This document shows, piece after piece, positions 5,091 to 58,399 of a DNA stretch of 64,000 nt. This DNA comes from Pseudomonadota bacterium (GTDB lineage Bacteria; Myxococcota_A; UBA796; SXON01). The notes under the pieces were generated by a model. That model worked only from the letters and a program-made list of their open reading frames with translations, was not told where the DNA came from and did not search any database. The stretch lies in NCBI GenBank assembly GCA_039800105.1, contig JBDLRI010000078.1:6469-70468 (forward strand), in the 5' to 3' direction. The position numbers and the translations under genes were made by a program. How positions within the stretch are numbered: position 1 is the stretch's first letter; each line of letters begins with the position of its first letter.

Positions 5091-7133
5091 ATGGGCGTCG
5101 CGTGGCTCGTCGGGCTGGGGTGGCTTGCGGCGTGCGGCACCCCGTCGCCGTCCGGGCCCCCGGCCCTCGACGCCTACGCGGCGCGCGGGGCGCCCGTGAC
5201 GGCGGCGCGGTGGGAGGGTCCGTGGCGCGTGCAGGTGTTGGCGCGAACCCCCGGGGAGCCCGATGTGCAGGCGTTCGCCGAGGTGCTCGGCGCGCCCGTC
5301 GTGGCGTGGGACGGCGCGCGACTGACCCCGCCGGTGGGCACGGCCGCCCTCGTATGGGTGGCTTCCGAGGCCGACGCGGAGCGGGTTTCCGCGGCTGGCG
5401 TCGCCGCCGGGGGCGGCGAGGGTGTGGCGGTGTTGTCCGCGACGTTCAGGTCTGGGGCGGGGGGCCGCAGCCCCCCGCAACGCCCCCCGCCGGACGCGGA
5501 CGCGAAGCCCGCGCGGGAGGTCTGGGCGGCGCGGCTCGCGTGGGCCGGTCTCGGGGTGGTGGATGCGGGGGCCGAGCTCGGCCTGTGGGCGGATCCGGCG
5601 TGGGCGGATTCGCACCCGGCGCGGGCGGCGCAGGCCGCGGCGTTCGCGGTCGCGTCGCACTACGCGGTGCCCGCGCGACCGGTGCCGGTGGACGACGACG
5701 TTCCGGCGGGCCTCGCGGAGCACCTGGCGGGCGCGGACGCCGAGGATGTGACCTCGGGCGATCCGCGACGCCGGGCGGCAGCTGCCGGCGATGCCGCGTC
5801 CGTGTGGGCCGCGACCGATCCGGATCCCGCGGTGCGCCTTGCGCTCGCGGCATCCGCGCGGGATCCCGCCGTGCGCGCGCGCCTCTCCCGGGACGCCGAC
5901 GCGCTGGTGCGCGCGCGTGCGCTCGACGGGTTGGACGATCCCGCGCTGCTGGCCGAGTCGCTCTCCGACGGCTCCAGCTTCGTGCGCGTCGTGGCCGTGG
6001 CGCGGTTGGCGGAGCTCTCCCGCGCGGGGAGCACCGCGCCGCAGGTGGAGGCCGCCCTCTCCGCGGCCAGCGGCTCCCCCGACGCTTACGTGCGCTGGAA
6101 GGCGGCGTCCGGTCTGCGTGACGTCGCGCGGCTCGCGGCGCTGCTGGCGGGGGATGCGGACGCGGATGTGCGCCGGGAGGCCGCGCGGCGCCTCGGCGTG
6201 CTCGGGGACCCTGCGGGGGCCGCTGCGCTCGTCGCTGCGACGCACGACCGCAACAGCTTCGTCCGCCGATGGGCGGCCGCCGCGCTCGGGCGGGTGCCGA
6301 CCCCCGACGCGGAGGCGGCCCTGCGCCGGGCCGCGGAGGACCCTACGGCGTTGGTGGCGGCCGCGGCCGCAGACGCCCTGCGGGCGCGCGGCGTGCCCAT
6401 GCCCGTGCGTCCGCCGTGGCGGCCGCCCGGCCCGCCCGAGGATGACGCGGCGCTCGATTCGCTGCTGGCCAGCCCGGATGCCACCGCGCGCAAGGACGCC
6501 GCGAAGTTTACGGTCGGTCGCCCGGGCGCGGTGGCGCGACTCGCGGCCCTGCGGTCGGACCCCGACAGCGAGGTGCGCAAGGCGGCGATGGAGGCCCTCG
6601 GGCGCGGGGCGTCGGAGGCGGACCGCCCCGCCCGCCTGGCGGCGTTGCGGCCCGGGCTGGACGATCCGGACGTGGATGTGCGTGTCACGACGCTGTCGTC
6701 CTACGCGGCGCTCGGGCGTGTCCCCGAGGACGCGCGCGCGCGGGTCGTGGCGCTCGCGGGGGATCCCGACACGGAGCTGCGTCTCCGGGCGGTGGAGGCG
6801 CTCGCCGCGGATCCGGACCTGCCGCCCGCCCTGCTTCCCGTGACGGACCCCGACGAGCGCGTACGGGCCGCCATCGTGGGACGCCTCCCCGCGCGCCTCG
6901 ACCCGGCGGAGCCGTGCGTGCTGGTCCGCCGCGCGGCGGGGCGCGGCACGGGAATCCTCGATGCCCCGGGGGACGACCCGCACCGTCGCGCCTGGTCCGC
7001 CGGGCGGCTTCACGACCTCGATCGGCTCGTCCACGCACGGTTCTCCTGGAACCTTCCGGAGGACCTGCCGCCGAGCCACCGCGCGCTGCGCCCGCCGGTC
7101 GTGCGCGCCTTCGGCCACCCCGACGAGGGGTGA
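5091..7133 (+). CDS. HEAT-repeat (PBS-lyase type) lipoprotein
   Basis: ATG 5091 inside ORF 4287..7133; lipobox MGVAWLVGLGWLAAC. Many DPxVR...AL..LGD repeats. Hairpin repeat copy 5452-5488 is read in frame. Confidence 0.65.
   Translation: MGVAWLVGLGWLAACGTPSPSGPPALDAYAARGAPVTAARWEGPWRVQVLARTPGEPDVQAFAEVLGAPVVAWDGARLTPPVGTAALVWVASEADAERVSAAGVAAGGGEGVAVLSATFRSGAGGRSPPQRPPPDADAKPAREVWAARLAWAGLGVVDAGAELGLWADPAWADSHPARAAQAAAFAVASHYAVPARPVPVDDDVPAGLAEHLAGADAEDVTSGDPRRRAAAAGDAASVWAATDPDPAVRLALAASARDPAVRARLSRDADALVRARALDGLDDPALLAESLSDGSSFVRVVAVARLAELSRAGSTAPQVEAALSAASGSPDAYVRWKAASGLRDVARLAALLAGDADADVRREAARRLGVLGDPAGAAALVAATHDRNSFVRRWAAAALGRVPTPDAEAALRRAAEDPTALVAAAAADALRARGVPMPVRPPWRPPGPPEDDAALDSLLASPDATARKDAAKFTVGRPGAVARLAALRSDPDSEVRKAAMEALGRGASEADRPARLAALRPGLDDPDVDVRVTTLSSYAALGRVPEDARARVVALAGDPDTELRLRAVEALAADPDLPPALLPVTDPDERVRAAIVGRLPARLDPAEPCVLVRRAAGRGTGILDAPGDDPHRRAWSAGRLHDLDRLVHARFSWNLPEDLPPSHRALRPPVVRAFGHPDEG
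5452..5488 (-). repeat. G/C hairpin repeat, short form, copy B (inside the HEAT lipoprotein CDS)
   Basis: CTGGGGCGGGGGGCCGCAGCCCCCCGCAACGCCCCCC, read in frame as ...GAGGRSPPQRPP. Confidence 0.85.
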
Positions 7134-7148
7134 GCACCGATCCGGCCC

Positions 7149-7188
7149 GGGGGCGTTGCGGGGGGCGGGCCAAGCCCCCCGCCCCAGG
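7149..7188 (+). repeat. G/C hairpin repeat, short form, copy C (between convergent genes)
   Basis: GGGGGCGTTGCGGGGGGCGGGCCAAGCCCCCCGCCCCAGG. 9-bp stem GCGGGGGGC/GCCCCCCGC. Lies between stops at 7133 (+) and 7197 (-). Confidence 0.85.
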
Positions 7189-7196
7189 AGCGCGCC

Positions 7197-7391
7197 TCAG
7201 AACACCATGTAGATGAACGGCGCCACGTAGTGCATCCCCTGCAGGAACAGGAGCACCCCTCCGAGCAGGACCAGCACCGCCACCAGCGGGAGCATCCACC
7301 ACCGTCCGCCGCGGACGAGCAGCAGCAGCAGCTCCCCGACGGTGCCGAGTCGCATCAGGAAGGCCTCGGTGCGGCCCAGTCCCGCGCTCAT
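7197..7391 (-). CDS. DUF5989-family small membrane protein
   Basis: 64 aa ending ...LLGGVLLFLQGMHYVAPFIYMVF, the family's characteristic APFIY..F end. ATGA overlap with the upstream carbamoyltransferase, its usual neighbour. Confidence 0.75.
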   Translation of the reverse strand: MSAGLGRTEAFLMRLGTVGELLLLLVRGGRWWMLPLVAVLVLLGGVLLFLQGMHYVAPFIYMVF

Positions 7392-9112
7392 CGCGGGCGC
7401 TCCACGCGGAAGCCCTCGATGTGGAGGGCGTCGAGCGCGGAGCGGTGCAGCGCCGCCATGGCATCCACCGGGGTGTCGACCATCGGGTCCCCCTTGAGGT
7501 TGAAGGACGTGTTGAGCAGGACGGGTACGCCGGTGGCGTCGCCGAGGTGACGCAGGATCGTCGCGAAGCGAGGATGTTCTTCGTGGTCGACCACCTGCAC
7601 GCGGGCGGAGCCGTCCACGTGCGTGACGGCAGGGAGGATCGCGCGGGCGTCGGGGCGTACCGTCGCCGTGGCGAGCATGACCCGCGACGGCTGCGCGGCG
7701 GCCGCGGGGATGTCGAACCACGCGTCGGCGTGCTCCGCGAGGACGGCGGGGGCGAACGGCCGGAATGGCTCGCGGTGCTTCACCCGCGCGTTCACCCGCT
7801 CCGCCACGTCGGGTCCCCGGGCATCGGCGAGGATGGAGCGATGCCCGAGCGCGCGCGGTCCCCATTCGCCGCGTCCGTCGAACCAGCCGACCACCCGTCC
7901 CGCGGCCAGGTCCTCCGCGACCCGCGCGAGCGCGTCGTCGCCGAGGTCCTCGACCTTCGCGCCCAGGTCCACGAGCATGTCGTGCACCTCCCCGCGCCCA
8001 TGCGAGCGCCCGAGGTCCACGCGACGCAGGGCCGGTCCCCGCGGGTTGCCGAGCACGGCGTGCCAGGCCCAGAGCGCGGCACCCATCGCGCCCCCCGCGT
8101 CCCCCGCGGCGGGGTGGATCCACAGGTGGGCGTGCGGGCCCTCCCGCGCGAGGCGGGCGTTGGCCACCGCGTTGAGCGCCACGCCGCCGGCGAGGCACAG
8201 CGCCTCGGAGTCGACGCGCGCGCGCGCGTGCCGCGCCAGGCCGAGCAGGGCGTCCTCGAGCACCGCCTGCGTGCTGGCGGCGATGTCCGCGAAGCGCCGA
8301 CCGTCGGGATCGTCGGGATCGAAGGGCGTCCCGGGAACCCTCGGCGCGCCGAGCAGGGCCTCCAGGCGCGGCGTGAAGCTCTCCGTGGGGTGCCAGTGCC
8401 AGCAGAACGCCTCGAGGTCGCAGGTGAAGCCGCCGTCGGGGTCGCGCCGGAGCAGTCGGTCGAGCGCCTCGCGGTGGCGGGGCGTTCCCCAGGCCGCCAT
8501 GCCCATGACCTTGTACTCGCCCTCGTTGACCGCGAAGCCGAGGTAGGCGGTCATCGCGGAGTAGAACAGTCCCAGCGAGTGCGGGAAGCGGATCTCGGCG
8601 AGCGGGGTGAGCGCGGTGCCCTCCCCGCGCCAGAGGGTGGTCGTGGCCACCTCTCCGACGCCGTCCACGGTCAGCACCGCGGCGTGTGCGTGCGGCGAGG
8701 TGTAGAACGCGCTGGCCGCGTGCGAGAGGTGGTGCTCGCAGAACAGGATGCGCTCCGGACGGACGGCGAAGGCCCGTGCCAGCGTGGTGCGCACCCAGAG
8801 CTTGTCACCGAGCCAGGCATGGGCCTGCCGCGGGAAGCTCCGCCAGCTGCGCGGGAACGTCGCGATGGCGTTGTGCAGCACCCGTTCGAAGGTGCGGAGC
8901 GGTTTCTCGTAGAACACGAGGTGGTCGAGGTCGCCCGCCTGGATGCCGGCGCGCCCCATGCACCACGCGGCGGCCCGGAGCGGAAGCGCGGCGTCGTGCT
9001 TGATGCGGGAGAACCGCTCTTCCTGGGCTGCCGCCACGACCTCCCCGTCCCGGAGCAACACCACGGCGGAGTCGTGGTAGAGCGCGGAGACTCCGAGGAT
9101 CCAGGTGGCCAC
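7388..9112 (-). CDS. NodU/CmcH-family carbamoyltransferase
   Basis: 574 aa. N-terminus MATWILGVSALYHDSAVVLLRDGEVVAAAQEERFSRIKHD is the conserved Kae1-like start of this family, and length fits the YrdC-like C-domain architecture. Confidence 0.9.
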   Translation of the reverse strand: MATWILGVSALYHDSAVVLLRDGEVVAAAQEERFSRIKHDAALPLRAAAWCMGRAGIQAGDLDHLVFYEKPLRTFERVLHNAIATFPRSWRSFPRQAHAWLGDKLWVRTTLARAFAVRPERILFCEHHLSHAASAFYTSPHAHAAVLTVDGVGEVATTTLWRGEGTALTPLAEIRFPHSLGLFYSAMTAYLGFAVNEGEYKVMGMAAWGTPRHREALDRLLRRDPDGGFTCDLEAFCWHWHPTESFTPRLEALLGAPRVPGTPFDPDDPDGRRFADIAASTQAVLEDALLGLARHARARVDSEALCLAGGVALNAVANARLAREGPHAHLWIHPAAGDAGGAMGAALWAWHAVLGNPRGPALRRVDLGRSHGRGEVHDMLVDLGAKVEDLGDDALARVAEDLAAGRVVGWFDGRGEWGPRALGHRSILADARGPDVAERVNARVKHREPFRPFAPAVLAEHADAWFDIPAAAAQPSRVMLATATVRPDARAILPAVTHVDGSARVQVVDHEEHPRFATILRHLGDATGVPVLLNTSFNLKGDPMVDTPVDAMAALHRSALDALHIEGFRVERPR

Positions 9113-9119
9113 CGCCGCC

Positions 9120-9869
9120 TCAGCCCTGTGCCCGGGCCGCGATCGCGACCGGGCGTGGGTCGACGGGCGGGGGCTGCCAGCCGCCGCGCTCCACCCGCGC
9201 GAAGGGACGCAACGGCCCCACGCCCGCGACGTAGACGAGGCCGAGCCACAGGTGGGCCATCGCAGCGCCCACGGCGTGGCTGGCGCGCAGCCACCCCTCC
9301 CGCATCCGGTCCAGGCGCACGCGCCGCAGGGCCGCCGTCACGTCCCGCCCGCGCCCGGACTCCCGCGCGCGGGTGAGCTCCGCGCGGCTGTAGGAGACGT
9401 GGAAGTGCTCGTCCTTGAGGATGTCGCGCAGCGCCTCGCGGGTATCGGGATCGGGCAGATCGCGTCGCAGGTACACGTTGAACTGCTCGACGGCGTCGCG
9501 CTCCGCGACGTGGACGAACGCGAGGAACGGAAGCTCCCCCATGCGCTCGAAGAGGGTGCGACCCCCGACCATGCCGTGGTGGTGGACCACGCCGGAGTCG
9601 GTCAGCGCCGCGTCGGCGCGGTCGTCCCGCGCCCCGAGGGCCTCTGCGCGCGCCTGGAACACCGCCGCGTGGCGCCGCTCGTCGAGCGCGTGCAGGAAGT
9701 ACTTGCGACGCAGATCGCGACGGGGCGTGGCCTCGGCGGCGGCCAGCATGTCCAGCGCGCTTGCGCGCTCGGTGTCACGGAAGGAGCGCAGGAATCGCAG
9801 GGGCCAGCCCGGCAGTCGCCAGGCCACCTCTCCGGAGAGGGCGATCCACGCGCGTCGCACGCTTCCCAC
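9120..9869 (-). CDS. ferritin-like (diiron-carboxylate type) protein with a hydrophobic C-terminal segment
   Basis: 249 aa with two ExxH motifs (LDERRHAAVF, KDEHFHVSY) spaced as in four-helix-bundle diiron proteins. Lies 7 nt upstream of the carbamoyltransferase on the same strand. Confidence 0.55.
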   Translation of the reverse strand: MGSVRRAWIALSGEVAWRLPGWPLRFLRSFRDTERASALDMLAAAEATPRRDLRRKYFLHALDERRHAAVFQARAEALGARDDRADAALTDSGVVHHHGMVGGRTLFERMGELPFLAFVHVAERDAVEQFNVYLRRDLPDPDTREALRDILKDEHFHVSYSRAELTRARESGRGRDVTAALRRVRLDRMREGWLRASHAVGAAMAHLWLGLVYVAGVGPLRPFARVERGGWQPPPVDPRPVAIAARAQG

Positions 9870-9918
9870 GCTGACCTCCCGGGGTGCGTTCCCCGTGGCA
9901 GGACATTATCCCGGCTCC

Positions 9919-11136
9919 ATGCCGATGACGCGCCCGGTGGCCCTGCTCCCCTCGCCCCTCCGCCTCCTGTGCCGCGTGGCCATGCTGTTCGCGTGCGTGC
10001 CCGCGGGCCCGGCCCGCGCCGAGAGCTTCGGCGTCCTGGTGCGCTACCACGCCGGGGAGGCGCTGCCGACCACGCCCGTCGAGGTGGTGCTGACCGCGGA
10101 CGGCGGCGCGCCGATCACCCTCACCCTCAAGGACGACGGCGCCCAGCCCGACGTGACCGGCGGGGACGGCATCTCGGCGGCGGCGACCTCGGTCGAGGGA
10201 GCCGTGTTCGCCGTGACGCTGCGGGTCGACGGCAACGAGACGGCGCTCGGCAACGTGTCGTGGGACTCCGTGGGCGCGCGGGATCTCGACATCCGGCGCA
10301 CGGATGCCGGTCCCGTGGCGACGGCGTCCGTGTCGAGCCCGGGCGCGGGACCGGGGGATGCCAAGGGGCCCTCCCCCGGGCCGGCGGGTGCGGCGGGTGC
10401 GGCCTCGGCCGCGGAGGGGGCGCCGGGCGGTGCGCTGCGCGCCGGGGTCGAGGCGACCGCCGGTGGCCTGGCCTCGGCACCCGCGCAGGTGGCGGCGCCG
10501 AAGCGCGACATCGAGCCGCGCCTGGTGTTCGGGATGGCCGGCGGGCTGGTGTTGCTGCTGGTGCTGCTGCGGTTGTGGGTGCGGGGCGGAACCTCGGAGC
10601 CCTCCATGCCCCGCGGGGTGACCCGCGTGGGGCCGCCGGGCCTGTTCGGGCCGGGGACCCCCGCGGTTTCGGGGACGTTCGCCCTGTGGACGGTGGATGC
10701 CGAGCCGCCCGCCCGCGCGGTGGCGGAAGCTGCCCTGATCGCCCGCGTGGCGCGCGATCATCGCGTCTTGCTGGTGGCGCCGGAGGGTCATCCGGCGCCG
10801 GTGGTGGCCGGCGGGCCGGTGCATCGCGCGGCGTCGACGGCGCCGGAAGCCGTCGCGGCGGCCGCGGTCGCGCTCGCCGCCGAGCCGGGACGCCCGCTCG
10901 CGGTGGTGGCGATGGGGCTGGAGCCCACGGCGTGGGCGCCGTTGGAGGATGCCTTGCCTGCCGACCTCGGAGGGATCGGCCTCGTCGAGGCGTCAGCCCT
11001 GCCGCCCGACGGGGACGGCGGCGCGCTGCCCCGCGTGCGCATGGTGCCCGAGGGCGACGGGTGGGGCGTGACCTGCGGCGACGCGCGCGTGCGCGTGCGT
11101 CTCGAGTCGGACGGCCGCGCCGGGGCGCTTGCGTGA
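9919..11136 (+). CDS. hypothetical single-pass membrane protein
   Basis: ATG 9919 inside ORF 9415..11136. Signal-like N-terminus ...MLFACVPAGPARAES and central TM LVFGMAGGLVLLLVLLRLWV. No recognisable domain. Confidence 0.5.
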   Translation: MPMTRPVALLPSPLRLLCRVAMLFACVPAGPARAESFGVLVRYHAGEALPTTPVEVVLTADGGAPITLTLKDDGAQPDVTGGDGISAAATSVEGAVFAVTLRVDGNETALGNVSWDSVGARDLDIRRTDAGPVATASVSSPGAGPGDAKGPSPGPAGAAGAASAAEGAPGGALRAGVEATAGGLASAPAQVAAPKRDIEPRLVFGMAGGLVLLLVLLRLWVRGGTSEPSMPRGVTRVGPPGLFGPGTPAVSGTFALWTVDAEPPARAVAEAALIARVARDHRVLLVAPEGHPAPVVAGGPVHRAASTAPEAVAAAAVALAAEPGRPLAVVAMGLEPTAWAPLEDALPADLGGIGLVEASALPPDGDGGALPRVRMVPEGDGWGVTCGDARVRVRLESDGRAGALA

Positions 11137-11175
11137 CGCGGGCCCATCCGCGGCGATAGCACCGGTTCAGGTCCG

Positions 11176-12798: not shown

Positions 12799-12836
12799 GC
12801 CCTGCCACCGAACACGGCCGCGCGCACGACGTCGTG

Positions 12837-12865
12837 TTGACGGGCCTTTCCGGATCGACTACAAC
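12837..12865 (+). promoter_or_regulatory. candidate sigma70-type promoter of the MerR-isc operon
   Basis: TTGACG (12837-12842), 17-nt spacer, TACAAC (12860-12865), 24 nt before ATG 12889. An AT-containing island in an otherwise G/C-rich intergenic region. Confidence 0.35.
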
Positions 12866-12888
12866 CTTCACGTACACGTAAGGGTCGT

Positions 12889-14609: not shown

Positions 14610-14621
14610 GAGACCCGCATC

Positions 14622-15941: not shown

Positions 15942-15942
15942 C

Positions 15943-17826
15943 ATGGCAGCCAACATCGGCATCGACCTCGGGACCACCCACAGCCTCGTGGCCGTCGTGC
16001 TCGGCGGGAAGGCGCGCTGCCTGCTGGACGAGACCGGCGACGCGCTGCTCCCGTCCGCCGTGCGGGTGGAGGACGACGGCACGCTGGTGGTGGGGCGCGC
16101 CGCGCGGGACGAGGCGGCGGCGCACCCGGGCCGCACCTTCACCAGCACGAAGCGCTTCATGGGCCGCGCGCCCGCGGACTGCCGCGAGGACGCCGCGCGC
16201 CTGCGCGCCACCCTCGACGAGGCCGAGGGCCGCTTCGTGCGGTTCCGCGCGGGGTCGCGCACGATCACGCCGGTGGAGGTCGCGGCGGCGGTGCTCAAGA
16301 CGCTGCGGGCGCGTGCGGTGGAGTGCCTCTTCGGAGAGCCGGGCGGCGCGGTGATCACGGTGCCGGCCTACTTCGACGACGCCCAGCGGCAGGCCACGAA
16401 GGACGCGGCGCGCCTCGCGGGCCTCGAGGTCCTGCGGCTGCTCAACGAGCCGACCGCGGCCGCGGTGGCCTACGGGCTGGACGCGCGCGCAAGCGGCCGC
16501 TTCGCCGTCTACGACCTCGGCGGCGGCACCTTCGACGTGAGCATCCTCGAGCTGGACGACGGCATCTTCCAGGTGCTCGCGACCGCCGGCGACACCCACC
16601 TCGGTGGGGACGACTTCGATCGCCTCGTCGCGGAGCACCTCCGCAGCGCGCTCGGGCTCGGCGACCTCGACGACTCCGCGCATCGGGCGCTCCTGCAGGC
16701 CGCCGAAGCCGCCAAGCGCCGCCTTGGGGAGGCGGACGCGACCGAGGTGGCCTTCGCGGGGCGCAGCTGCACGCTCACGCGGGAGACCTTCGACGCGCTC
16801 GTGGCACCGGTTCTGGCCCGCACCGGCGACGCCGCGCGCCAGGCACTGGGCGATGCCGGCCTGACGGCCGATCAGCTCGACGCCGTGGTGCTCGTCGGCG
16901 GGTCCACCCGCGCCCCCGTGGTGCGCCGCTACGTGGAGGGGCTGTTCGGGCGTGCGCCCCGCTGCGACCTCGACCCGGATCAGGTCGTGGCGCTCGGCGC
17001 GGCCATGCAGGCGGACATGCTCAGCGGTGCGGCCTCCATGGCCGATGACATGCTGCTGCTCGACGTGATCCCGCTGTCGCTGGGGCTGGAGCTCATGGGC
17101 GGCGTGGTGGAGAAGTTCATCCCGCGCTGCTCGACCATTCCCGTCAGCGCGCACCACACCTTCACGACCCACGTGGACGACCAGACCAGCATCGACCTGC
17201 ACGTGGTCCAGGGCGACCGCGAGCTGGCGCGCGACAACCGCTCGCTCGCGCGCTTCCGCCTCGCGGGGCTTCCGCCCCTGCCGGCCGGGGTGCCGCGCGT
17301 GCGCGTGGAGTTCACCGTGGACGCCGACGGGCTGCTCACCGTGTCCGCGCGGGAGGAGTACACCGGCCTCGAGACGCGGGTGGACGTGCGCCCCAGCTAC
17401 GGCCTCTCCGAGGAGGAGATCGAGCGCATGCTCGAGGACAGCATCGACCACGCCGAGGACGATGTCGAGGCGCGCATGGCCATCGAGGCGCGCGTGGAGG
17501 CCGAGGGCATCCTGGCGGCGCTGGACAAGGCGCTGGCCACCGACCGCGCCCTGCTCGAACCCGGCGAGGAGGAACGCGTGGTGCAGGTCGCCGAGGCGCT
17601 CCGCGCCGCGCTTCCGGGCTCCGACCGCGCGCGCGTGCGGGAACTCTCGCAGGAGCTCGACGCCGTGACCGCGCCGTTCGCGCAGCGGCGCATCGAGCGG
17701 GATCTGACCCGCGCCCTGTCCGGCCGCGACGCGCTCGCGGTGGACGCCGAGCTGGCCTCCCGGGCCGCGTCGGCCGGGGGCGTTGCGGGGGGTGGCCAGC
17801 CCCCCGCCCCAGGCGCAGGAGCCTGA
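15943..17826 (+). CDS. hscA: Hsp70-type Fe-S chaperone HscA
   Basis: MAANIGIDLGTTHSLVAV, DLGGGTFDVS, and the Hsp70 ATPase and substrate-binding layout. The last ~17 codons are encoded by hairpin repeat copy 17776-17813. Confidence 0.93.
   Translation: MAANIGIDLGTTHSLVAVVLGGKARCLLDETGDALLPSAVRVEDDGTLVVGRAARDEAAAHPGRTFTSTKRFMGRAPADCREDAARLRATLDEAEGRFVRFRAGSRTITPVEVAAAVLKTLRARAVECLFGEPGGAVITVPAYFDDAQRQATKDAARLAGLEVLRLLNEPTAAAVAYGLDARASGRFAVYDLGGGTFDVSILELDDGIFQVLATAGDTHLGGDDFDRLVAEHLRSALGLGDLDDSAHRALLQAAEAAKRRLGEADATEVAFAGRSCTLTRETFDALVAPVLARTGDAARQALGDAGLTADQLDAVVLVGGSTRAPVVRRYVEGLFGRAPRCDLDPDQVVALGAAMQADMLSGAASMADDMLLLDVIPLSLGLELMGGVVEKFIPRCSTIPVSAHHTFTTHVDDQTSIDLHVVQGDRELARDNRSLARFRLAGLPPLPAGVPRVRVEFTVDADGLLTVSAREEYTGLETRVDVRPSYGLSEEEIERMLEDSIDHAEDDVEARMAIEARVEAEGILAALDKALATDRALLEPGEEERVVQVAEALRAALPGSDRARVRELSQELDAVTAPFAQRRIERDLTRALSGRDALAVDAELASRAASAGGVAGGGQPPAPGAGA
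17776..17813 (+). repeat. G/C hairpin repeat, short form, copy D (inside the hscA 3' end)
   Basis: GGGGGCGTTGCGGGGGGTGGCCAGCCCCCCGCCCCAGG, read as GGVAGGGQPPAPG, 11 nt before the hscA stop. Confidence 0.85.
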
Positions 17827-24210: not shown

Positions 24211-24387
24211 TGGGGCGGGGGCTGAGGCCGCCCCCTCGCGGCCGCCGCCGGGCGTCGGCCTCCGGGGGCGGGGTCCGGCGCTCGCCGAGCCTGGCTCGGC
24301 GCCGCCTTCGGCGGACGCGTCCTCCCCACGCGCGCCGCTCGGGGCCCCTTCGGGGCCAACCGCGGCGGCGTGCCCGCAACGCCCCGG
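24211..24387 (-). repeat. G/C hairpin repeat, 177-bp long form, copy E (intergenic)
   Basis: Starts TGGGGCGGGGGCTGAGGCCGCCCCC and ends GTGCCCGCAACGCCCCGG, the same termini as the short form. The core has hairpins GCCGAG-CCTGG-CTCGGC, CCGC-CTTCG-GCGG and GGCCCC-TTCG-GGGGCC. Confidence 0.8.
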
Positions 24388-49291: not shown

Positions 49292-49340
49292 GCGATGTCC
49301 TAACCGGCGGAAAAGCAGTCCACACCGGAGTGCTGGGCGG

Positions 49341-50576: not shown

Positions 50577-50652
50577 GCCGCGACGTATCGTGGGGCCTTG
50601 ATCGCTGCGAGCGTCCCCGCTATACGCGCGGCCGGAGTTCCGAGAGTCCCCC

Positions 50653-51042
50653 ATGATGCAGCTGCCCGTGGACATGCGCGACGCCTTGGTCGAACAGCTG
50701 GACGAGTACCTCGACGCCCAGCCGAGCACCCCCGACCCCGAGGCGGTCGCCAGCTACATCGTGGAGCTGGTCGGCAGCATCGCCGAGGAGCTGAAGATCG
50801 ACGACGCCGACGAGATCATCCTCAAGCTGGAGTCCTCCGGCGAGCTGGAGGCCGGTCTGGCCGAGGTGCTCGAGGAAGAGTTCGAGAGCAACGGCGAGTT
50901 CGAGTTCACGGGGGAGGAGGTGGTGTCCCTCCTCGAGAAGCTCTGTGACGTCGAATGGTCCTCGGAGGATGACGAGGATCTCGACGAGGACGACGATTCC
51001 GGTTTCTTCGACGACCTCGCCGCCGAAGAGGACGACGACTGA
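50653..51042 (+). CDS. hypothetical highly acidic protein (129 aa)
   Basis: Strong GC3 bias in this frame and about 40% D/E. C-terminus DEDDDSGFFDDLAAEEDDD. The antisense ORF 50620..51063 is rejected. Confidence 0.6.
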   Translation: MMQLPVDMRDALVEQLDEYLDAQPSTPDPEAVASYIVELVGSIAEELKIDDADEIILKLESSGELEAGLAEVLEEEFESNGEFEFTGEEVVSLLEKLCDVEWSSEDDEDLDEDDDSGFFDDLAAEEDDD

Positions 51043-51088
51043 GACGCCGGCCCGCGTCGGCACGCGGGGTGGGCGAACGCGCCAAATC

Positions 51089-52810: not shown

Positions 52811-52834
52811 CGGGGGCGCGGAGGGCCCTGCGCG

Positions 52835-54589
52835 TCAGCGGCGGGTGCCACGCGCGCGGACGCGGGCCATCTGTGCGTAGGTGCCCACGTGCGGGATGCG
52901 GGAGTCCATGGCGCGGGCCGCGTCGAGATCCTCGCACGCGCCGTGCCAGTCCTTCAGGTAGAACCGCGCCAGGCCGCGGCGGCACAACGCGAGCGCGTGG
53001 TCGGGGTGTTCCCGGAACGGGTCGGCCACCAGCGCGGAGTCGTAGGCGACGACGGCGGCGCCGTAGTCCTTCTGCGCGAAATAGGCCTCGGCGCGCACCA
53101 TGCGCGGCCCCGCCGCGAACGGGGCGAGGGCCTCGGCGGCGGCCGCGTCGCGGAGCGCGGACGTGCTGTCGGCAAGCTCCACGTGGACCCGTGCGCGGGC
53201 CAGGAGCGCCTCGAGGTGGGACGGGCACAGCGCGAGGACCGCGCTCCACCCCGCGAGCGCCCCGGGCAGATCGGCGACCTCCGTGCGGCGCAGGGCTTCC
53301 GCGAGGGCGGCGCGCACGTCGGGATGGTCCTCGGGCAGGACGGCGGCGGGCGGTCGCGGGTCGGTGGACTCCTCCCGAAACTCCGCGACCACGGGGGCCG
53401 CCGGGGGTTCCGGCGCGACGGGGCGGGCGACCGAGGGCGTCGCGTCCTCGTCGCTTTCCAGCTCGACATCGTCGCGGATCACGGTGGGGACATCGTCGTA
53501 GAGGCCGTCCGCCTCCGGAGGCGGCTGCAGGCCCGCGACCCGGATGGCGGTGATGACGCGGGCGAAGGCATCCCCGTCGGGTGCGGCCTCCGGAGGCTCC
53601 GGCAGGGTGAACTCCGGCACCACCGCGCGCGGCGTGGCGACGGGGTCCTCGTCGACCGGCTCGGCGCCCTCGCCGGAGATCGGGAGCGAGTCCCACCGGT
53701 AGCCGGTGACGAAGCCCGCGCCGCGCCGTACGGCCTGCACCGGCTGCGCGACCGTGGGGAAGCGGATTTCAGGGACCTGGCCGCGCAACTCCGCGGGCTC
53801 CTCGGCGCTGGACCGCCCGTCGCCGCCGAGGACGTAGTCCGCGTCGGTCCATGCGGGTCGCGGGGGCGGGAGGGCAACCTCCGTGACCAGGACGGGCGTT
53901 GCGGGCACGTCGCCGCGGTGGGCCCCGTCAGGGGCCTCGCGCGGTGCGCGTGGGGAGGACGTGTCCGCCGGAGGCGGCGCCGCGCCGGGCTCGGCGAGCG
54001 CCGGTGGCGGGGGCGTTGCGGGGGCGGCCTGAGCCCCCGCCCCAGGAGGCGGAGCGGCCCAGGCGGGATGCGGCTCCTCCGGTGTCGGTTCCGCAGGAAC
54101 CTCGTGAGGCACGGCATCATCGGGGAGCGCGACGAGCTCCAGCACCCGGTCGCGCGGGAGACCCATGCCGAGCAGGCGGACCGCGAGGGCCGCGCGTACG
54201 AGCGGCTCGGAGAAGGTGTCGTCCGGGGGGGCGTCGTCGCGACGCGCGGGGCCGGGCGTGAACGCCGCCCGGGCTTCCTGTTCGAGCGCCGCGATGCGCG
54301 TGCGCACGGCACGGGCGCGGGCCGCCTCCGCGAGGGCCTGGGGCGAGAAACGCGGCACCGCGTCCTCGGACGCCGACGATTCCGGCGCACGCCCGTCCGC
54401 CACGTCCTGCAGGCGTCGGATGCGAACCAGCACGGGGGTAGCGGGCCGGCCGGGCCGCGCCGCGGCCGCGAGGCGCCGGGCGCGCAGGGGCGGGAGGTTC
54501 GAGGCGGCGACCTCCAGCAGCGCGCCGCGCGCGTCCTCGACGGTGGCCAGCAGGCGCCGTGCGGCCTCCAGCGCGCGGGTGTCCGCCAC
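52835..54589 (-). CDS. Pro-rich protein with C-terminal TPR-like domain
   Basis: GTG 54589 with AAGGAG 9 nt upstream. Long P/A/E-rich middle; the C-terminal ~170 aa are TPR-like (AYFAQKDYGAAVVAYDSAL...). Hairpin repeat 54009-54046 is read in frame. Confidence 0.6.
   Translation of the reverse strand: MADTRALEAARRLLATVEDARGALLEVAASNLPPLRARRLAAAARPGRPATPVLVRIRRLQDVADGRAPESSASEDAVPRFSPQALAEAARARAVRTRIAALEQEARAAFTPGPARRDDAPPDDTFSEPLVRAALAVRLLGMGLPRDRVLELVALPDDAVPHEVPAEPTPEEPHPAWAAPPPGAGAQAAPATPPPPALAEPGAAPPPADTSSPRAPREAPDGAHRGDVPATPVLVTEVALPPPRPAWTDADYVLGGDGRSSAEEPAELRGQVPEIRFPTVAQPVQAVRRGAGFVTGYRWDSLPISGEGAEPVDEDPVATPRAVVPEFTLPEPPEAAPDGDAFARVITAIRVAGLQPPPEADGLYDDVPTVIRDDVELESDEDATPSVARPVAPEPPAAPVVAEFREESTDPRPPAAVLPEDHPDVRAALAEALRRTEVADLPGALAGWSAVLALCPSHLEALLARARVHVELADSTSALRDAAAAEALAPFAAGPRMVRAEAYFAQKDYGAAVVAYDSALVADPFREHPDHALALCRRGLARFYLKDWHGACEDLDAARAMDSRIPHVGTYAQMARVRARGTRR
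54009..54046 (+). repeat. G/C hairpin repeat, short form, copy G (inside the TPR-protein CDS, antisense orientation)
   Basis: GGGGGCGTTGCGGGGGCGGCCTGAGCCCCCGCCCCAGG, read on the minus strand as PGAGAQAAPATPP. Confidence 0.85.
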
Positions 54590-54595
54590 GGGCGG

Positions 54596-55126
54596 CTACT
54601 CCTTGTTGCCGAGCCGCAGGTCCGCCATCTGCTGGCTCAGGCCCGTGAGGCTCGACACCAGCTCGTTCTTCAGCACGCGCAGCCGCGAGACGTTCTCCTC
54701 CATCGTGCGCACGCGGGCGCCGAGGTCGGCGTTCTCCTTGCGGAGGCTGTCGGCCTCCGAGTCGAGGTTGGCGAGCGTGCGCCGCAGGTCCTCCACCTCG
54801 GTCGTCAGCGTGCGCACCTCGCGCTCGCGCGTGCCCACGACCTCGCGCAGGCCTCGCCGCTCCTCGAGCAGGCCGGTGTGGGCGGTGCCGGCCGCCTCCG
54901 CGCGTCCACGCAGCTCGGCCAGCTCCTTCCCGAGCGCGGCGACCTCCGCCGCCATGCTCTCCTGCACGGCGCGGGAGCGGGCGATCTCGAGCTCGGTGCT
55001 CACCACCTGGCGCGTGGTGGCCTCCGTGACGCGCATGACGTCCATCAGCTCCTGGATGCGCTGCTCGAGGATGTCCGCCAGCTCCGCGGAGAGGGCCTCG
55101 AGGCGGTCGGCGGACGGGTCGGACAT
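54596..55126 (-). CDS. coiled-coil protein (176 aa)
   Basis: ATG 55126 with a CAGGAG RBS. Heptad-rich sequence (ELADILEQRIQELMDV...LRKENADLGARVRTMEENVSRLRVLKNEL). 6 nt upstream of the TPR gene. Confidence 0.65.
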   Translation of the reverse strand: MSDPSADRLEALSAELADILEQRIQELMDVMRVTEATTRQVVSTELEIARSRAVQESMAAEVAALGKELAELRGRAEAAGTAHTGLLEERRGLREVVGTREREVRTLTTEVEDLRRTLANLDSEADSLRKENADLGARVRTMEENVSRLRVLKNELVSSLTGLSQQMADLRLGNKE

Positions 55127-55200
55127 GCGCAACTCCTGGCGGGCGGAGGTTATCCGCCGTGGGCACGGCGAGCCAATGCGGGCCGGCGTGGGAGCGTCCC

Positions 55201-55644
55201 GTGGAACGACCTCGCCTCCTGCTGCTGGAGCCGGATCTGGCGGTGCGGCTCGCGTTGCTGCCGCACCTGCACGCGCATTGGCGCGTGGACACCCCGGAAA
55301 CGGCCAGGGACGCGATGCGTCACCTGCGCGCGCATCCGCCGGTCCTCGCGGCGGTCGGCGTCTGCGGTCGACTGGACGGGCTTCGCCGCGGGGCGGGCAT
55401 GAACGCGCCGCGGGAGGCCGTCACGCTGGCCGTCCAGCTGCGGACGGACCTGCGTCCCGTCGAGGCGGTGGTGCTCTACGGGCACGCGCCGGGGGCACGC
55501 GCGCCCGACTGGCCCGCAGGGGTGGCGCCACCGGAGGCGTGGGTGCCCGACGGCCGGGATCCCGAGGTGCTGCACGCCGCGCTCCTGCGCGTGGCGACGG
55601 TCCTGCGTCGGAAAGGCACACGTCCGGGCGGGGGCGCGGTATGA
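55201..55644 (+). CDS. degenerate receiver-like (pseudo-receiver) protein, tentative
   Basis: GTG 55201 with GGGAG at 6-nt spacing (alternative GTG 55159). RLLLLEPDLAVR...TPETARDAMRHL follows a REC beta1-alpha1 pattern but lacks the acidic pocket and phospho-Asp. ATGA overlap with the next gene. Confidence 0.4.
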   Translation: MERPRLLLLEPDLAVRLALLPHLHAHWRVDTPETARDAMRHLRAHPPVLAAVGVCGRLDGLRRGAGMNAPREAVTLAVQLRTDLRPVEAVVLYGHAPGARAPDWPAGVAPPEAWVPDGRDPEVLHAALLRVATVLRRKGTRPGGGAV

Positions 55645-57788
55645 TGGGGGTGATGTGGACCCTCCTCCTTCTCGCGTGCAGCGACTACAACATCCAGAAC
55701 CGCCCTCCCGGAAAGGTCACCGAGGAGACGGACACGGGCTTCACCGTCGACACGGACGTGACCGAGGAGACCCAGGTGTGCCGCAACACCTGGACCACCA
55801 TGGCGGATGGCGTGTCCACGGACGAGGGCTGCACCCGCGAGCCGGTCGACGTGCCGCTCAGCACGCGCTTCGTCTGGGACAAGCCGTCGTGGGGGCAGTA
55901 CCCCGAGTACGGCCAGGCGCTCGTCACCCCGGTGGTCGGTCGCCTGGTGGATGAGAACGGCAACGGCACCACGGCCGATGATCCGGTCTACATCGCCGTC
56001 GTGACCGATGACGGCGTGCTGGACCGCCGGGACACGCACGGCGTCGTGCGCATGGTGCGCGGTACCGACGGGAACGAGTACCAACGGCCGGCGATCTACC
56101 GCATCGACACGCCGACCCAGCAGGTCTACCCCTACCGCTACTCCGGTCTCGCCCTCGGCGATGTCGACGGGAACGGCATTCCCGACATCGTCGGCATCGC
56201 GGAGGTGTTGGAGAACACCGGGACCGACACGGCCGGCGGCACCGACACGACCACGGACACGGGCACCGACACCGGCACCGACAGCGGTCCTCCGGACATT
56301 CCCGTGCGTCCGACGGGCATGTACGGGCGCGGCGGGTCGGGCGGCGGTTCCGGCGGAGGCTCCGGCGGGGGCACCGGCGGGGGCGATGCTCCGCCTCCGC
56401 CGTGTCGCGTCGTGGCGTGGACCAGCGAGGGAGAGCTGCTGTGGGTGGCGAACGACGCACCGCGCACCTGCGCGGGGGATGTCCCCGCGCTCGCCGATCT
56501 CGAGAGTGACGGCACCGTGGAGGTGATCGTCGGCGCGACGATCGTGGAGGGCGCCACGGGCGCCGTGCGCATCGTCGGCACGGCCGGCCAGGGGCGACAC
56601 CAGGCCTTCACCCAGATCGGCGCCATCAGCGTCCCCGCGGATCTCGAGGGCGACGGATTCATGGAGATCGTCACCGGCAACACCATCTACGAGCACAACG
56701 GTGTGGTGCGCTGCCAGACCGGCACGGACGACGGGTTCCCTGCCGTGGCTGACCTCGACGGGGACGGCACGGGGGACGTCGTGGCGGTCGGAAACGGCCA
56801 GATGCGCCTCTTCAAGCACGACTGCGCGCCGCTCGCCTCCTGGCCGCTCGGCGCTCCGGAGGCCGTGCAGAACGGCGGTCCTCCCACCGTCGCGGACTTC
56901 GACGGGGACGGCACGCCCGAGATCGGGGCGGCGTCGGCCACGATCTATGCCGTATTCGAGGTGGACGGGAGGATGCTCTGGTCCAACGACATCGTCGACG
57001 CCATCAGCTTCACCGCGGGTTCGTCGGTGTTCGACTTCGACGGCGACGGTCGCGCGGAGGTGGTCTACGCCGACGAGACGAGCCTGTGCATCTGGGACGG
57101 GGCGGACGGGCACGTCCGGTTGCAGGACCCCTACCATGCGTCGCGCACCCTGCACGAATACCCGGTGGTGGCCGACGTCGACGATGACGGGGAAGCCGAG
57201 CTGATCGTGCCCAATGGCGGCAACCACTACGGCGATCCGCGGCAGGGGCTCTACGTCCTGGAGAGCGCCACCACCCCGTGGCCGGCCGCGCGACCGGTGT
57301 GGAACCAGCATGCCTACAACATCGTCAACGTGAATGACGACCTCAGCATCCCGTCCCATCCACTCCCGAACTGGCCGAGCCACAACAGCTTCCGCTCCGC
57401 GGACATGATCCCGGTCTCGGCCGGCCGTTTCCCGGATGCCGTGGCGATCGTGGCGGTGTGCACCGAGGGCTGCGCCGAGTACGGGCAGATCGTGGTGGGC
57501 GTGAAGATCGCCAACGGAGGGACGTCGGACGTGCCCGCGGGTCTGAACGTGGCGTTCTACCTGGGGGACGAGGCGCTCGGGATCCCCCCGGTGCTCCACG
57601 AGCTGCGCACCCTTCCGAACGCCATCGCGCCGCGCGAGGCGAGCGACGTGATGGAGTTCACCGTCGACGCCATCGACGCCCTGCAGGGCATGCGCGTCGT
57701 GGTGGACGACGACGGGACCGGCGTGGGGGCGCTGTACGAGTGCCACGAGGAGAACAACCCGGCGTCCGTGTTCGGTCAGTGCCCCTGA
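55641..57788 (+). CDS. FG-GAP/VCBS-repeat lipoprotein with C-terminal CARDB-like domain (paralog 2)
   Basis: Lipobox WTLLLLACS. Repeats GDVDGNGIPDIV, ADLESDGTVEVIVG, ADLEGDGFMEIV, ADLDGDGTGDVV, ADFDGDGTPEI, FDFDGDGRAEVVY, ADVDDDGEAELIV. WNQHAYNIVNV motif; ends YECHEENNPASVFGQCP. Confidence 0.85.
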   Translation: MMGVMWTLLLLACSDYNIQNRPPGKVTEETDTGFTVDTDVTEETQVCRNTWTTMADGVSTDEGCTREPVDVPLSTRFVWDKPSWGQYPEYGQALVTPVVGRLVDENGNGTTADDPVYIAVVTDDGVLDRRDTHGVVRMVRGTDGNEYQRPAIYRIDTPTQQVYPYRYSGLALGDVDGNGIPDIVGIAEVLENTGTDTAGGTDTTTDTGTDTGTDSGPPDIPVRPTGMYGRGGSGGGSGGGSGGGTGGGDAPPPPCRVVAWTSEGELLWVANDAPRTCAGDVPALADLESDGTVEVIVGATIVEGATGAVRIVGTAGQGRHQAFTQIGAISVPADLEGDGFMEIVTGNTIYEHNGVVRCQTGTDDGFPAVADLDGDGTGDVVAVGNGQMRLFKHDCAPLASWPLGAPEAVQNGGPPTVADFDGDGTPEIGAASATIYAVFEVDGRMLWSNDIVDAISFTAGSSVFDFDGDGRAEVVYADETSLCIWDGADGHVRLQDPYHASRTLHEYPVVADVDDDGEAELIVPNGGNHYGDPRQGLYVLESATTPWPAARPVWNQHAYNIVNVNDDLSIPSHPLPNWPSHNSFRSADMIPVSAGRFPDAVAIVAVCTEGCAEYGQIVVGVKIANGGTSDVPAGLNVAFYLGDEALGIPPVLHELRTLPNAIAPREASDVMEFTVDAIDALQGMRVVVDDDGTGVGALYECHEENNPASVFGQCP

Positions 57789-57799
57789 GCACGACCGGC

Positions 57800-58399
57800 G
57801 TGCGGCGTCTCCTCCCGCTCGCGCTCCTGCTTTGCGCGATGCCCGCGCGGGCCGAGCCGACCGAGACGGACCGCCCGTACGCGGGCCACGGCGCCCTGAC
57901 CCTCGGCGCCGAGACGCTGACGCTGAACGGTCGACGGATCGTGGACGCGCGCGGCGGCGTGCTGGTGGATCGCCTGCTCGGACCCCCGGTGTCGCGGGCG
58001 GACGTCCTTTGCGCGGCGGACGAGGGTGCCGACGGCCTGGGGCAACTCCGCTGCTGGAACGCGCGGCGGGAACCCGTCACGCTCGCCGTGGGCGGTCGAC
58101 CCAGCCGCCTCGCGCTCGGAGGCACGCACCTGGCGTGGGTGGCCTCGCCGGGCGGCATTCCGCAGGTGTTCGTCGCGCCGCTGGACGGACACGCGGCCCC
58201 GCGGAGCCTCACGAACGTCGCGGTCGTGGCCGCGCGGGGGGAGGCGTTGCGGAGGGGGGCCGGCCCCCCTCCGTCCCCGACCCCCGGGAAGCCACCCCCG
58301 GGGTTCGTCCCGCCCCCGCTGCGCCAGTCACTGCGTTTTGACGGGGACATGCTGCGGTGGGAGGCCCAGGACGGCCACCACGAGGCGCGCTGGCGATGA
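57800..58399 (+). CDS. hypothetical secreted protein
   Basis: GTG 57800 (or 57779); signal peptide VRRLLPLALLLCAMPARAEP. Hairpin repeat 58236-58279 is read in frame. ATGA overlap with the M23 gene. Confidence 0.5.
   Translation: MRRLLPLALLLCAMPARAEPTETDRPYAGHGALTLGAETLTLNGRRIVDARGGVLVDRLLGPPVSRADVLCAADEGADGLGQLRCWNARREPVTLAVGGRPSRLALGGTHLAWVASPGGIPQVFVAPLDGHAAPRSLTNVAVVAARGEALRRGAGPPPSPTPGKPPPGFVPPPLRQSLRFDGDMLRWEAQDGHHEARWR
58236..58279 (+). repeat. G/C hairpin repeat, short form, copy H (inside the CDS at 57800-58399)
   Basis: GGGGGAGGCGTTGCGGAGGGGGGCCGGCCCCCCTCCGTCCCCG, nearly identical to the reverse complement of copy A; read as RGEALRRGAGPPPSP. Confidence 0.85.

Follow-up and report, generated by a model that had tools for sequence, protein, structure and literature searches.

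The closest described systems are the REPs and the Rickettsia palindromic elements (RPEs). REP super-families are 20–40 bp imperfect palindromes, present in tens to thousands of copies and characterized by GTAG or CGTC tags (Di Nocera et al. 2013; PMC3733652). The CGTC REPs possess an unpaired 3′ tail (consensus: CCA), and the REPtron, a RAYT (Y1 transposase) gene flanked by REPs, is associated with the GTAG class only (PMC3733652). Some REPs are intragenic; this subset, lying inside ORFs, encodes 7–30 residues in several frames, as in the approximately 70 Opitutus terrae ORFs of Additional file 3 (PMC3733652). The RPEs (Ogata et al. 2000, as reviewed in PMC10969869) are palindromic selfish repeats found in frame in many unrelated genes, and MITEs such as ERIC, BOX, Correia, and Nezha also fuse, on occasion, in frame with genes (PMC10969869).

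The window analyzed here, 64,000 nt of a Myxococcota MAG (3.6 Mb, 73% GC), contains three sequences, copies B, G, and H, which a first-pass annotation made from the sequence had taken for copies of one repeat tolerated in frame inside genes, in different frames and orientations. A search with the Hsp70 gene yielded distant proteins only (at most 55% identity), with Vulgatibacter and “Myxococcales bacterium” as the best, and thereby places the organism no more finely than the phylum. The three sequences are indeed copies of one repeat: each possesses a 10/10 match to the head GGCGTTGCGG, with a G/C hairpin and then a C-rich tail (CCCCAGG) on its 3′ side. We consider it probable (roughly 0.85) that all three represent a REP-like miniature palindromic element, which occupies some 500 places in the genome and has in part survived in coding sequence. 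The phenomenon itself is already known from the Rickettsia RPEs and from the intragenic REPs of Opitutus and other bacteria; the novelty lies in the lineage and in the different head motif.

Genome-wide there are 688 occurrences of the head, against approximately 116 expected from composition. Since it is mirror-symmetric, the reversed pattern is not a valid control in a genome pattern search. Filtering for the head plus a G-rich hairpin gives approximately 517 copies of what we call the type-1 repeat, an element of ~40–45 nt consisting of a 12-bp G:C hairpin with a conserved 5-nt bulge (GTTGC) inside the stem and a CCCCAGG end. Among these 517 copies the distance from the head to the end of the hairpin is 23–43 nt, the stems measure 7–12 bp, and the loops are mostly 2–7 nt. 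RNA folding places the conserved motif, G-CGTT-GC, in a bulge between the pairing G and C runs, and the only A/T bases of the 10-nt head are those of its GTT. In the tail, CCCC is able to pair with the 5′ G-run, and “CCA” is found only within CCCA. A longer form of the element (111–177 nt) also exists, and its alignment reveals that the short form corresponds to its two ends. The folds of the copies are no stabler than same-composition shuffles (z −0.5 to −1.1), a comparison that is uninformative here since shuffled G/C runs fold about equally well. No Rfam family was found for the repeat, either at the gathering threshold in the entire window or at an E-value threshold in the region 53850–54100. 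Intrinsic (Rho-independent) terminators consist of a G/C hairpin followed by a U-run; this identity is ruled out, the hairpin being followed by CCCCAGG(A) with no T-run.

Like the REPs (PMC3733652), the element is a short G/C-rich hairpin (~30–45 nt) that has a short C-rich tail and, at one end, a conserved unpaired motif; its hundreds of copies lie mostly just 3′ of convergent or unidirectional genes, and some are inside ORFs. The extragenic copies are found between convergent (70), unidirectional (105), and divergent (33) genes, a median of 17–19 nt past the upstream gene, and most copies lie 10–30 nt 3′ of stop codons. Palindrome size, copy number, and downstream placement are those of a REP; the GTAG/CGTC tag is absent, and no RAYT association was found. 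The motif CGTT(GC) is one base off CGTC but is located in the bulge of an extended stem, while the REP tags are terminal; the stems are near-pure G:C runs, and the copies are single, unlike the head-to-head dimers which predominate in PMC3733652. The uncultured Myxococcota host lies outside the coverage of that survey, and the fraction of copies inside genes, at least 18%, seems high. As for the CGTC REPs, no dedicated transposase is evident: PF01797 (Y1_Tnp/RAYT) has no match in the element’s own genome (a MAG 89% complete), and the Y1_Tnp genes of three related repeat-bearing genomes (G013, G017, and G009) are free of the repeat for 1.5 kb in both directions.

The resemblance to the RPEs (PMC10969869) resides in a palindromic selfish repeat inserted in frame in many unrelated genes, the ORF staying open, in a manner compatible with the fold and retained across species. 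RPE-1-type elements are, by contrast, ~100–150 bp, AT-rich, and translated in one frame as a conserved peptide of ~30–50 aa in hosts with reduced intracellular genomes; ours is ~40 nt, G/C-only, read in five to six frames, and resident in a free-living high-GC bacterium, with no resemblance to the RPEs in composition. With the in-frame MITEs (PMC10969869) it shares small, non-autonomous size and a longer form having the same ends, but no IS-type terminal inverted repeats were identified for the repeat, the junctions of B and H show no target-site duplication, and a parent IS, looked for as Y1_Tnp, was likewise not identified.

Copy B (5452–5490, minus strand; head 5475–5484, minus strand; hairpin arms GCGGGGGGC/GCCCCCCGC) lies within a plus-strand gene (5091–7133) for a HEAT-repeat lipoprotein of 680 aa with the lipobox LAAC, recognized from codon-position GC, log-odds calls, and Pfam HEAT_2 (2e-24). 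The host gene reads it antisense as GAGGRSPPQRPP, in the peptide context SGAGGRSPPQRPPP; its RNA fold (−29.7 kcal/mol) has 12 bp of stem and a bulge of 5 nt, GCAAC. The site is empty in 10/10 orthologues from relative genomes and in 12/13 database orthologues, the 12 distant proteins displaying a clean gap of 19–21 residues where the lipoprotein has the repeat-derived insertion (approximately residues 121–139). P0031 (79% identical) carries the copy with a single change, in the loop. The insert (57–63 nt) is longer than the core element, and its boundaries are accordingly not exact. In the AlphaFold2 model (mean pLDDT 85.6) pLDDT falls below 50 internally at residues 121–139 only. A copy of this family is also present in the HEAT orthologue of another genus (loci L007 and L008), at a different site; it reads GGALRGDAPPQEDP, from GGGGCGTTGCGGGGCGACGCCCCGCCCCA, and represents an independent insertion.

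Copy H (58236–58279, plus strand; head 58243–58252, plus strand) possesses an A-variant stem (GGAGGGGGGCC/GGCCCCCCTCC; fold −36.1 kcal/mol) and is read in sense as RGEALRRGAGPPP, in the context ARGEALRRGAGPPPSP. Its host gene (57779–58399, plus strand; codon-position GC, log-odds calls, and orthologues) encodes a secreted beta-rich protein of 206 aa and sits upstream of an M23 peptidase gene. The site is empty in 11/11 orthologues from relative genomes and in 15/18 database orthologues, carriers being found only at 75% identity or above. The 15 empty orthologues (at most 70% identity; the repeat-free same-genus genome G001 among them) have a gap of 14–16 residues opposite the insertion (approximately residues 147–162), and the tail C-terminal to the copy (GFVPPPLRQSLRFDGD.LRW) is kept in all orthologues. 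The copy is present in P0007 and P0009 (75–88% identity), and P0008 has a partly deleted remnant. These comparisons employed codon alignments, the same-genus gene being, at only 47% protein identity, too far for a MAFFT DNA alignment. In the AlphaFold2 model the insertion is part of a connector of lower confidence, for which a short helix is predicted.

Copy G (54005–54046, plus strand; head 54012–54021, plus strand) is read antisense as PGAGAQAAPATPP, in the context PPGAGAQAAPATPPPP, by a minus-strand gene (52835–54589; codon-position GC and log-odds calls). In the product (584 aa) the N-terminal region is conserved, the linker that follows is disordered and Pro-rich, and the C-terminal domain is TPR-like, with Pfam TPR matches that are weak and sub-threshold. 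Adjoining the copy within the same ORF is a type-2, or long-form, repeat of 111 nt (53894–54004, plus strand), which shares the head and is in frame with the host as PPALAEPGAAPPPADTSSPRAPREAPDGAHRGDVPATP; it has approximately 29 genomic copies (82–92% identity) and can be aligned to the long form at 24211–24387. Copy G and the type-2 repeat together amount to ~153 nt (51 codons) of repeat-derived DNA at this site, which corrects the first-pass annotation. No empty site is demonstrable for copy G, the linker being unalignable in distant orthologues. Orthologue P0005 (73–78% identical) can, however, be aligned over the full length of the host. Counted at codon positions 1, 2, and 3, the substitutions number 19/15/75 (N-terminal region), 30/26/35 (linker), and 38/35/135 (C-terminal region). 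This alignment and the third-position bias show that the N-terminal region flanking the copy is coding and that the host is one gene. Copy G is located in a disordered linker that evolves almost neutrally.

In a genome of 73% GC spurious ORFs must be considered, the repeats then lying between two genes or upstream of a true start. The window holds 180 overlapping ORFs of at least 150 aa, the frame plot is locally disturbed at 54040–54130, and copies B, G, and H each fail a strict in-frame test (same-frame coding signal of at least 15 bits over 150 nt in both flanks, no stop), although for local technical reasons: the left flank of B is weak, the type-2 repeat adjoins G, and the host gene ends 120 nt from H. 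The three were decided by orthologues instead, and these span both sides of every copy within one ORF. No in-frame stop is present, the substitutions are third-position-biased both upstream and downstream of G, and in B and H the copy comes after the lipoprotein signal and the signal peptide, respectively. An intergenic position is thus contradicted by the orthologue alignments and the substitution bias, and we regard it as very improbable. The host ORFs remain open across the copies in three combinations of orientation and frame (anti/0, anti/1, and same/2), with the peptides that had been annotated; linker or loop placement is borne out by the low-confidence loop of B, the lower-confidence connector of H, and the near-neutral linker of G. 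Neither outcome named in the annotation as counting against it, intergenic positions or an identical peptide in repeat-free orthologues, was observed.

The phenomenon extends throughout the genome. Within crude gene calls there are 288 of the 517 copies, 175 of these at least 90 nt from both gene ends; the home-made caller over-calls (93% coding), and only the count from the strict test is conservative, namely at least 93/517 copies (18%) in frame inside genes with all six frames represented. Frame usage among the 93 is 28/22/19/16/7/1 (chi-square p = 6e-6), the Cys-containing frame (GRCGG) being used just once, and the 1 mod 3 class of head-to-tail lengths shows a three-fold depletion within genes (p = 7e-6). 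This skew and this depletion reveal selection at the level of peptide and length. Fifty-nine copies are codirectional but in a different phase, a class in which frameshifted hosts would be expected. Three further hosts, chosen at random, are ComEC (metallo-beta-lactamase, MBL, domain), a GT1 glycosyltransferase, and a peptidase C11; in their orthologues the same loop is empty or holds unrelated inserts, which gives empty sites in 5/5 testable genes (with B and H).

The peptides are of low complexity and random G/C-rich DNA folds about as well, features also to be expected of convergent coding sequence built from Gly/Pro/Ala codons in a GC-rich genome. Such convergence has a negligible probability in our estimation, being contradicted by DNA-level identity across frames: the exact 10-nt head including GTT, the hairpin, and the tail are common to three copies in three frames, the same DNA gives rise to six different peptide motifs genome-wide, and the orthologues possess empty sites. 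Orthologues without the repeat are also without the peptide. The annotation had further attributed survival in genes to the absence of stops. In 82% of copies none of the six frames contains a stop, but this is already true of 46% of random 46-mers from the same genome; freedom from stops helps but is nothing special at such a GC content, and it explains survival only in part.

The history of a REP-like element may be surmised as follows. Most copies would have come to lie downstream of stop codons, like classical REPs, and a large minority would have landed within coding sequence. There, a copy would survive where the added length preserved the reading frame, where the frame used contained no stop (as is usual for G/C-only sequence), and where the resulting 13–20-residue peptide, rich in Gly, Pro, Ala, and Arg, fell in a surface loop or disordered linker. 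The three insertions probably occurred in an ancestor shared with the closest sampled relatives (75–88% protein identity) and would have been passed on by descent, apart from a single partial in-frame deletion of H.

The origin by insertion proposed in the first-pass annotation is upheld by the empty sites; mere tolerance is not, the copies being more conserved than their hosts. In a sister-species locus (L037) copy G is identical at 37/37 nt while the linker around it is ~36% diverged; the chance of this under linker divergence is ~5e-8, and the best 42-nt window elsewhere in the host gene is at most 40/42 identical. Copy H is identical to that of P0009 at 43/45 nt against 75% gene-wide (p = 3e-4), the differences being restricted to the loop and 3′ tail. 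Because intragenic copies are better conserved than their surroundings, constraint or homogenization acting on DNA or RNA is suggested.

The first of these, compatible with an insertion origin, would have the copies kept by selection on the nucleic acid in a dual-use capacity: within the gene, the hairpin and its conserved bulge would bind a protein, make transcription or translation pause, or affect RNA processing or stability. Besides G and H, it accords with the single loop change of B and with intergenic copy C, which in the sister species retains its hairpin with a different but compensated stem. On the other side, just three or four orthologous pairs underlie the conservation, P0008 lost most of copy H and kept the gene, the type-2 repeat beside G has decayed in L037, the proteins that contain copies are unrelated and the positions follow no logic, and the folds are no stabler than shuffles. 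We consider such selection possible but unlikely, and its specific form, a G:C hairpin with fixed GTTGC bulge held by purifying selection across species while the linker drifts, doubtful. Were it true, structural or regulatory sites inside genes, for protein binding or pausing, would form a layer across the genome and would also encode loop peptides.

Homogenization would instead leave the copies neutral passengers without function, corrected by gene conversion among hundreds of copies or by their own hairpin arms. Hundreds of near-identical donors exist, stems and head are at consensus while loops drift (B and H), and the stem variant of copy C differs in the sister species as if replaced; yet in copy G neither the stem-length variant nor the 7-nt loop differs between the two species, a match that conversion from random donors would not preserve. 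This too strikes us as rather improbable. The unexpectedly strong conservation is, nonetheless, a lead towards a function or a homogenizing mechanism.

For the REP-like element as a whole, a free-living, very high-GC member of the Myxococcota is added to the few cases of a selfish palindromic repeat in many proteins, with a clean before-and-after series of empty, occupied, and partly deleted sites. That a repeat provides a route to protein sequence, as the annotation proposed, is supported, although the idea is as old as the Rickettsia RPEs and intragenic REPs. Here one DNA repeat is a source of loop sequence in at least 93 proteins, including ComEC, a glycosyltransferase, and proteases, and its intragenic copies constitute natural “insertion-tolerance maps” of the host folds. 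The recurrent motifs GGALRGG-PPPQ, GAEGDTPSATPPP, and WGGGGSPLRNASP should accordingly be annotated as repeat-derived and not as domains. The repeat-derived peptides are presumably produced, and the junction-spanning peptides predicted from copies and hosts include LSATFRSGAGGR and VAARGEALR.

Copies B (5452-5490, minus strand; ...GGGGGGCGTTGCGGGGGGCTGCGGCCCCCCGCCCCAGAC), G (54005-54046, plus strand; GGGGGCGTTGCGGGGGCGGCCTGAGCCCCCGCCCCAGGAG) and H (58236-58279, plus strand; GGGGGAGGCGTTGCGGAGGGGGGCCGGCCCCCCTCCGTCCCCG) of the type-1 hairpin repeat all carry the exact head GGCGTTGCGG, followed by a hairpin of a G-run and a C-run and then by a C-rich tail. The window, with a G+C content of 73-77%, belongs to contig C78 of a 3.6-Mb MAG (160 contigs, 89% complete), and Myxococcota are the source of the best matches for its Hsp70 and HEAT proteins. 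Across the genome there are 688 occurrences of the head, where about 116 are expected; 517 copies remain once the G-rich hairpin is also demanded. RNA folding of the element gives a 12-bp G:C stem broken by a 5-nt bulge, the GTTGC/GCAAC motif. Shuffles with the same composition fold almost as well, and the folding energy is therefore evidence for nothing. In their 5′ part, all type-1 copies (e.g., 58236-58258) have perfect mirror symmetry, reading GGAGGCG-TT-GCGGAGG or GGGGGCG-TT-GCGGGGG, and co-varying A/G variants preserve it; because of this symmetry, a reversed-pattern control matched as frequently as the pattern itself. The G-variant also matches the quadruplex motif G3N1G3-N6-G3N1G3.

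Since the window is GC-rich and contains 180 overlapping ORFs of at least 150 aa, open frames alone prove nothing, and three independent lines were used to decide whether the copies lie inside genes. Codon-position GC and a codon log-odds model, trained on 647 long ORFs with high GC3 (150-nt windows; in-frame mean +35 bits, wrong-frame 95th percentile +7), place the host genes at 5091-7133 (plus strand; B, a HEAT-repeat lipoprotein of 680 aa), 52835-54589 (minus strand; G, a TPR-like protein of 584 aa), and 57779-58399 (plus strand; H, a secreted protein of 206 aa), with the reading frame unbroken across B and H. For the lipoprotein (Pfam HEAT_2, 2e-24; lipobox LAAC), 10 related-genome and 13 protein-database orthologues align over the entire length; for the secreted protein the numbers are 11 and 18, respectively, and the alignment includes the C-terminal block GFVPPPLRQSLRFDGD.LRW...WR, which is located after the repeat. 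Distant orthologues of the TPR protein share only the C-terminal ~190 residues, the long N-terminal regions being unalignable; P0005, from a JGI metagenome (73-78% identical), can be aligned across all 584 residues. From its gene (locus L037, the sister species), the window gene differs at 19/15/75 first, second and third codon positions over the N-terminal 166 codons and at 38/35/135 over the C-terminal part, from which it follows that purifying selection on the protein acts on both flanks of G in one and the same frame; the linker that bears the repeat is nearly neutral at 30/26/35. An intergenic location, with separate genes on each side, is excluded by the gene calls, the two-sided orthologue alignments, and the substitution pattern around G, and the observation in the first-pass annotation that the three copies stand in frame inside genes is confirmed.

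That annotation had further proposed that a DNA repeat is here turned into protein sequence. At H, the sequence LTNVA(V/I)V(A/T)ARGEALRRGAGPPP... is common to the window protein and the orthologues P0007 (88%) and P0009 (75-78%), while a clean gap of 14-16 codons is found in P0010 (64-70%), in 14 further database orthologues, and in 11 of 11 related-genome orthologues, among them that of the same-genus G001. P0008 (78-81%) retains only VVAARKAAGLP, with the DNA remnant CGCAAGGCGGCGGGGCTCCCG; alignment of its gene (L119) to 58236-58279 reveals that copy H has been partly deleted in frame in this one lineage, an intragenic copy having decayed without loss of the gene. At B, GAGGR(S/R)PPQRPPPD... 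is present in the window protein and P0031 (79%), and all 10 genomic plus 12 database orthologues display a gap of 19-21 residues. Repeat-free orthologues with an identical peptide, which would have refuted this reading, were not found for B and H, the peptide being absent from them; both are lineage-specific insertions, inherited afterwards and once partly deleted. No empty site could be demonstrated for G, where the sister species bears an identical copy at the matching place. Taken with the in-frame copies inside genes, the empty sites support the proposed interpretation. Orthologues of the HEAT gene from another genus (L007 of G020 and L008 of G017) carry a same-family copy that was inserted independently elsewhere in the gene, is read as GGALRGDAPPQEDP and is embedded in larger lineage-specific inserts.

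The inserts appear to occupy loops or linkers, as had been anticipated. In the AlphaFold2 model of the B host (14 aligned sequences; mean pLDDT 85.6), residues 121-139 are the sole internal segment with pLDDT <50 and are exactly the 19 inserted residues, flanked by a β-strand/short helix and by helix 141-151. G falls in a Pro-rich linker of the TPR protein. The model of the H host (mean pLDDT 78) predicts a short helix (147-158) for the insert, which opens a lower-confidence connector (block means 77 to 58) between the β-sheet body and the C-terminal hairpin.

Genome-wide, 288 copies lie inside crude gene calls, which over-call (93% of the genome coding), and 175 of these are at least 90 nt from either gene end. 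Under a strict test, which demands at least 15 bits from each 150-nt flank in one shared strand and phase and no intervening stop, 93 of the 517 copies (18%) qualify as in-frame within coding sequence. All six frames are used, each with a recurrent peptide: anti/1 (28 copies; GAEGDTPSATPPP), same/0 (22; GGGVAEGGGPPSAP), anti/2 (19; WGGGGSPLRNASP), same/2 (16; GGALRGG.PPPQ), anti/0 (7; GRGDIPPQRPP), and same/1 (1; GGRCGG). Usage is uneven (chi-square p = 6e-6), and the near-absence of the Cys-containing frame fits a filter on the peptide. Twenty of the 93 host genes were drawn at random and eight submitted to Pfam; domains were found in four, with the copy inside the domain envelope in three, namely ComEC (Lactamase_B 492-702; copy 592-606), a GT1 glycosyltransferase (Glycos_transf_1 175-303; copy 254-268), and a C11 peptidase (Peptidase_C11 50-310; copy 168-182). 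At the loop that holds the copy, related-genome orthologues of these three are gapped or carry an unrelated insert.

The suggestion that the G/C-only repeat lacks stops in every frame stands in part: 82% of copies are free of stops in all six frames, but the effect is modest, the value for random 46-mers from the same genome being 46% (mean closed frames per sequence, 0.19 versus 0.70). The same is true of the expected multiple-of-three lengths. Head-to-tail lengths of 1 mod 3 account for 23% of extragenic versus 8% of within-gene copies (p = 7e-6), with 2 mod 3 enriched; exact insert length is measurable only against empty sites, and the two so measured, B and H, are multiples of three by construction.

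Copy G is adjoined by a type-2/long-form repeat of 111 nt (53894-54004, plus strand), which also starts with GGCGTTGCGG; translation of the TPR gene passes in frame through about 153 nt (51 codons) of repeat DNA formed by the two together. The 111-nt repeat, of which the genome contains about 29 copies (82-92% identity), corresponds to the long form at 24211-24387, with a further window site listed from 44872, and is in frame in 2 of 25 scorable copies by the flank test. The sister species has the short copy G intact beside a decayed 111-nt part.

Conservation of the intragenic copies goes beyond what the word "tolerated" would imply. G is identical between the species at 37 of 37 nt, against ~36% divergence in the surrounding linker, and no other 42-nt window of the TPR gene exceeds 40/42 identity. 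H retains 43 of 45 nt versus 75% gene-wide, the changes being confined to loop and tail, and B has a single change, in the loop; binomial estimates are 5e-8 for G, 3e-4 for H, and 9e-7 for B and G together. The cause is either selection on the hairpin, at the DNA or RNA level, or homogenisation among copies; both readings would account for the conservation at the three loci, which is the one lead that could raise the interest of this repeat family.

Intragenic repetitive extragenic palindromes (REPs) are known from several species, including about 70 ORFs, in several frames, for Opitutus terrae (Di Nocera et al. 2013; PMC3733652), and CGTC-tagged REPs occur without a dedicated transposase (PMC3733652). 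The classic case of an in-frame repeat is that of the Rickettsia palindromic elements (RPEs; PMC10969869). The present family does not carry the REP tag, having CGTT in the bulge rather than a terminal GTAG or CGTC, and differs from the RPEs in both size and composition; despite these differences, it is the same kind of element and the same phenomenon. Our literature search found no paper connecting REPs with Myxococcota. The extragenic copies are REP-like, lying a median of 17-19 nt past the upstream gene and mostly between convergent or unidirectional genes. No Y1/RAYT transposase was found in the MAG (89% complete), nor any repeat flanking the Y1/RAYT genes of related repeat-bearing genomes. 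Intergenic copy C (7134-7196; L122:5065-5122) persists in the sister species, where its stem differs but is compensated (GCGGGGCC...GGCCCCGC, versus GCGGGGGGC...GCCCCCCGC in the window), and copy A (1742-1770) is absent there (L122:464-505 versus 1709-1857), which indicates that turnover is ongoing. Exact head-plus-stem matches number 243 in the source genome, 224 in G013 (another genus, g9), 13-47 in three congeners of G013, and 0 in G001, the only same-genus genome; this patchy distribution, with G023 also compared, suggests recent expansion, loss or transfer.

A further type-1 copy (17779-17806) is contained in the final 16 codons of an Hsp70-family gene at 15943-17826 (Pfam HSP70, 5.8e-171), supplying its C-terminal tail, with the stop afterwards. 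The AGGAG of the repeat tail closely precedes the ATG (17829) of the following gene. Across the genome, many extragenic copies have the ending ...CCCCAGGA(N)nTCA, the tail abutting the stop codon of an opposite-strand gene, and others the ending ...CCCCATG, so that the tail may provide a Shine-Dalgarno-like AGGAG or start-codon context for neighbouring genes.
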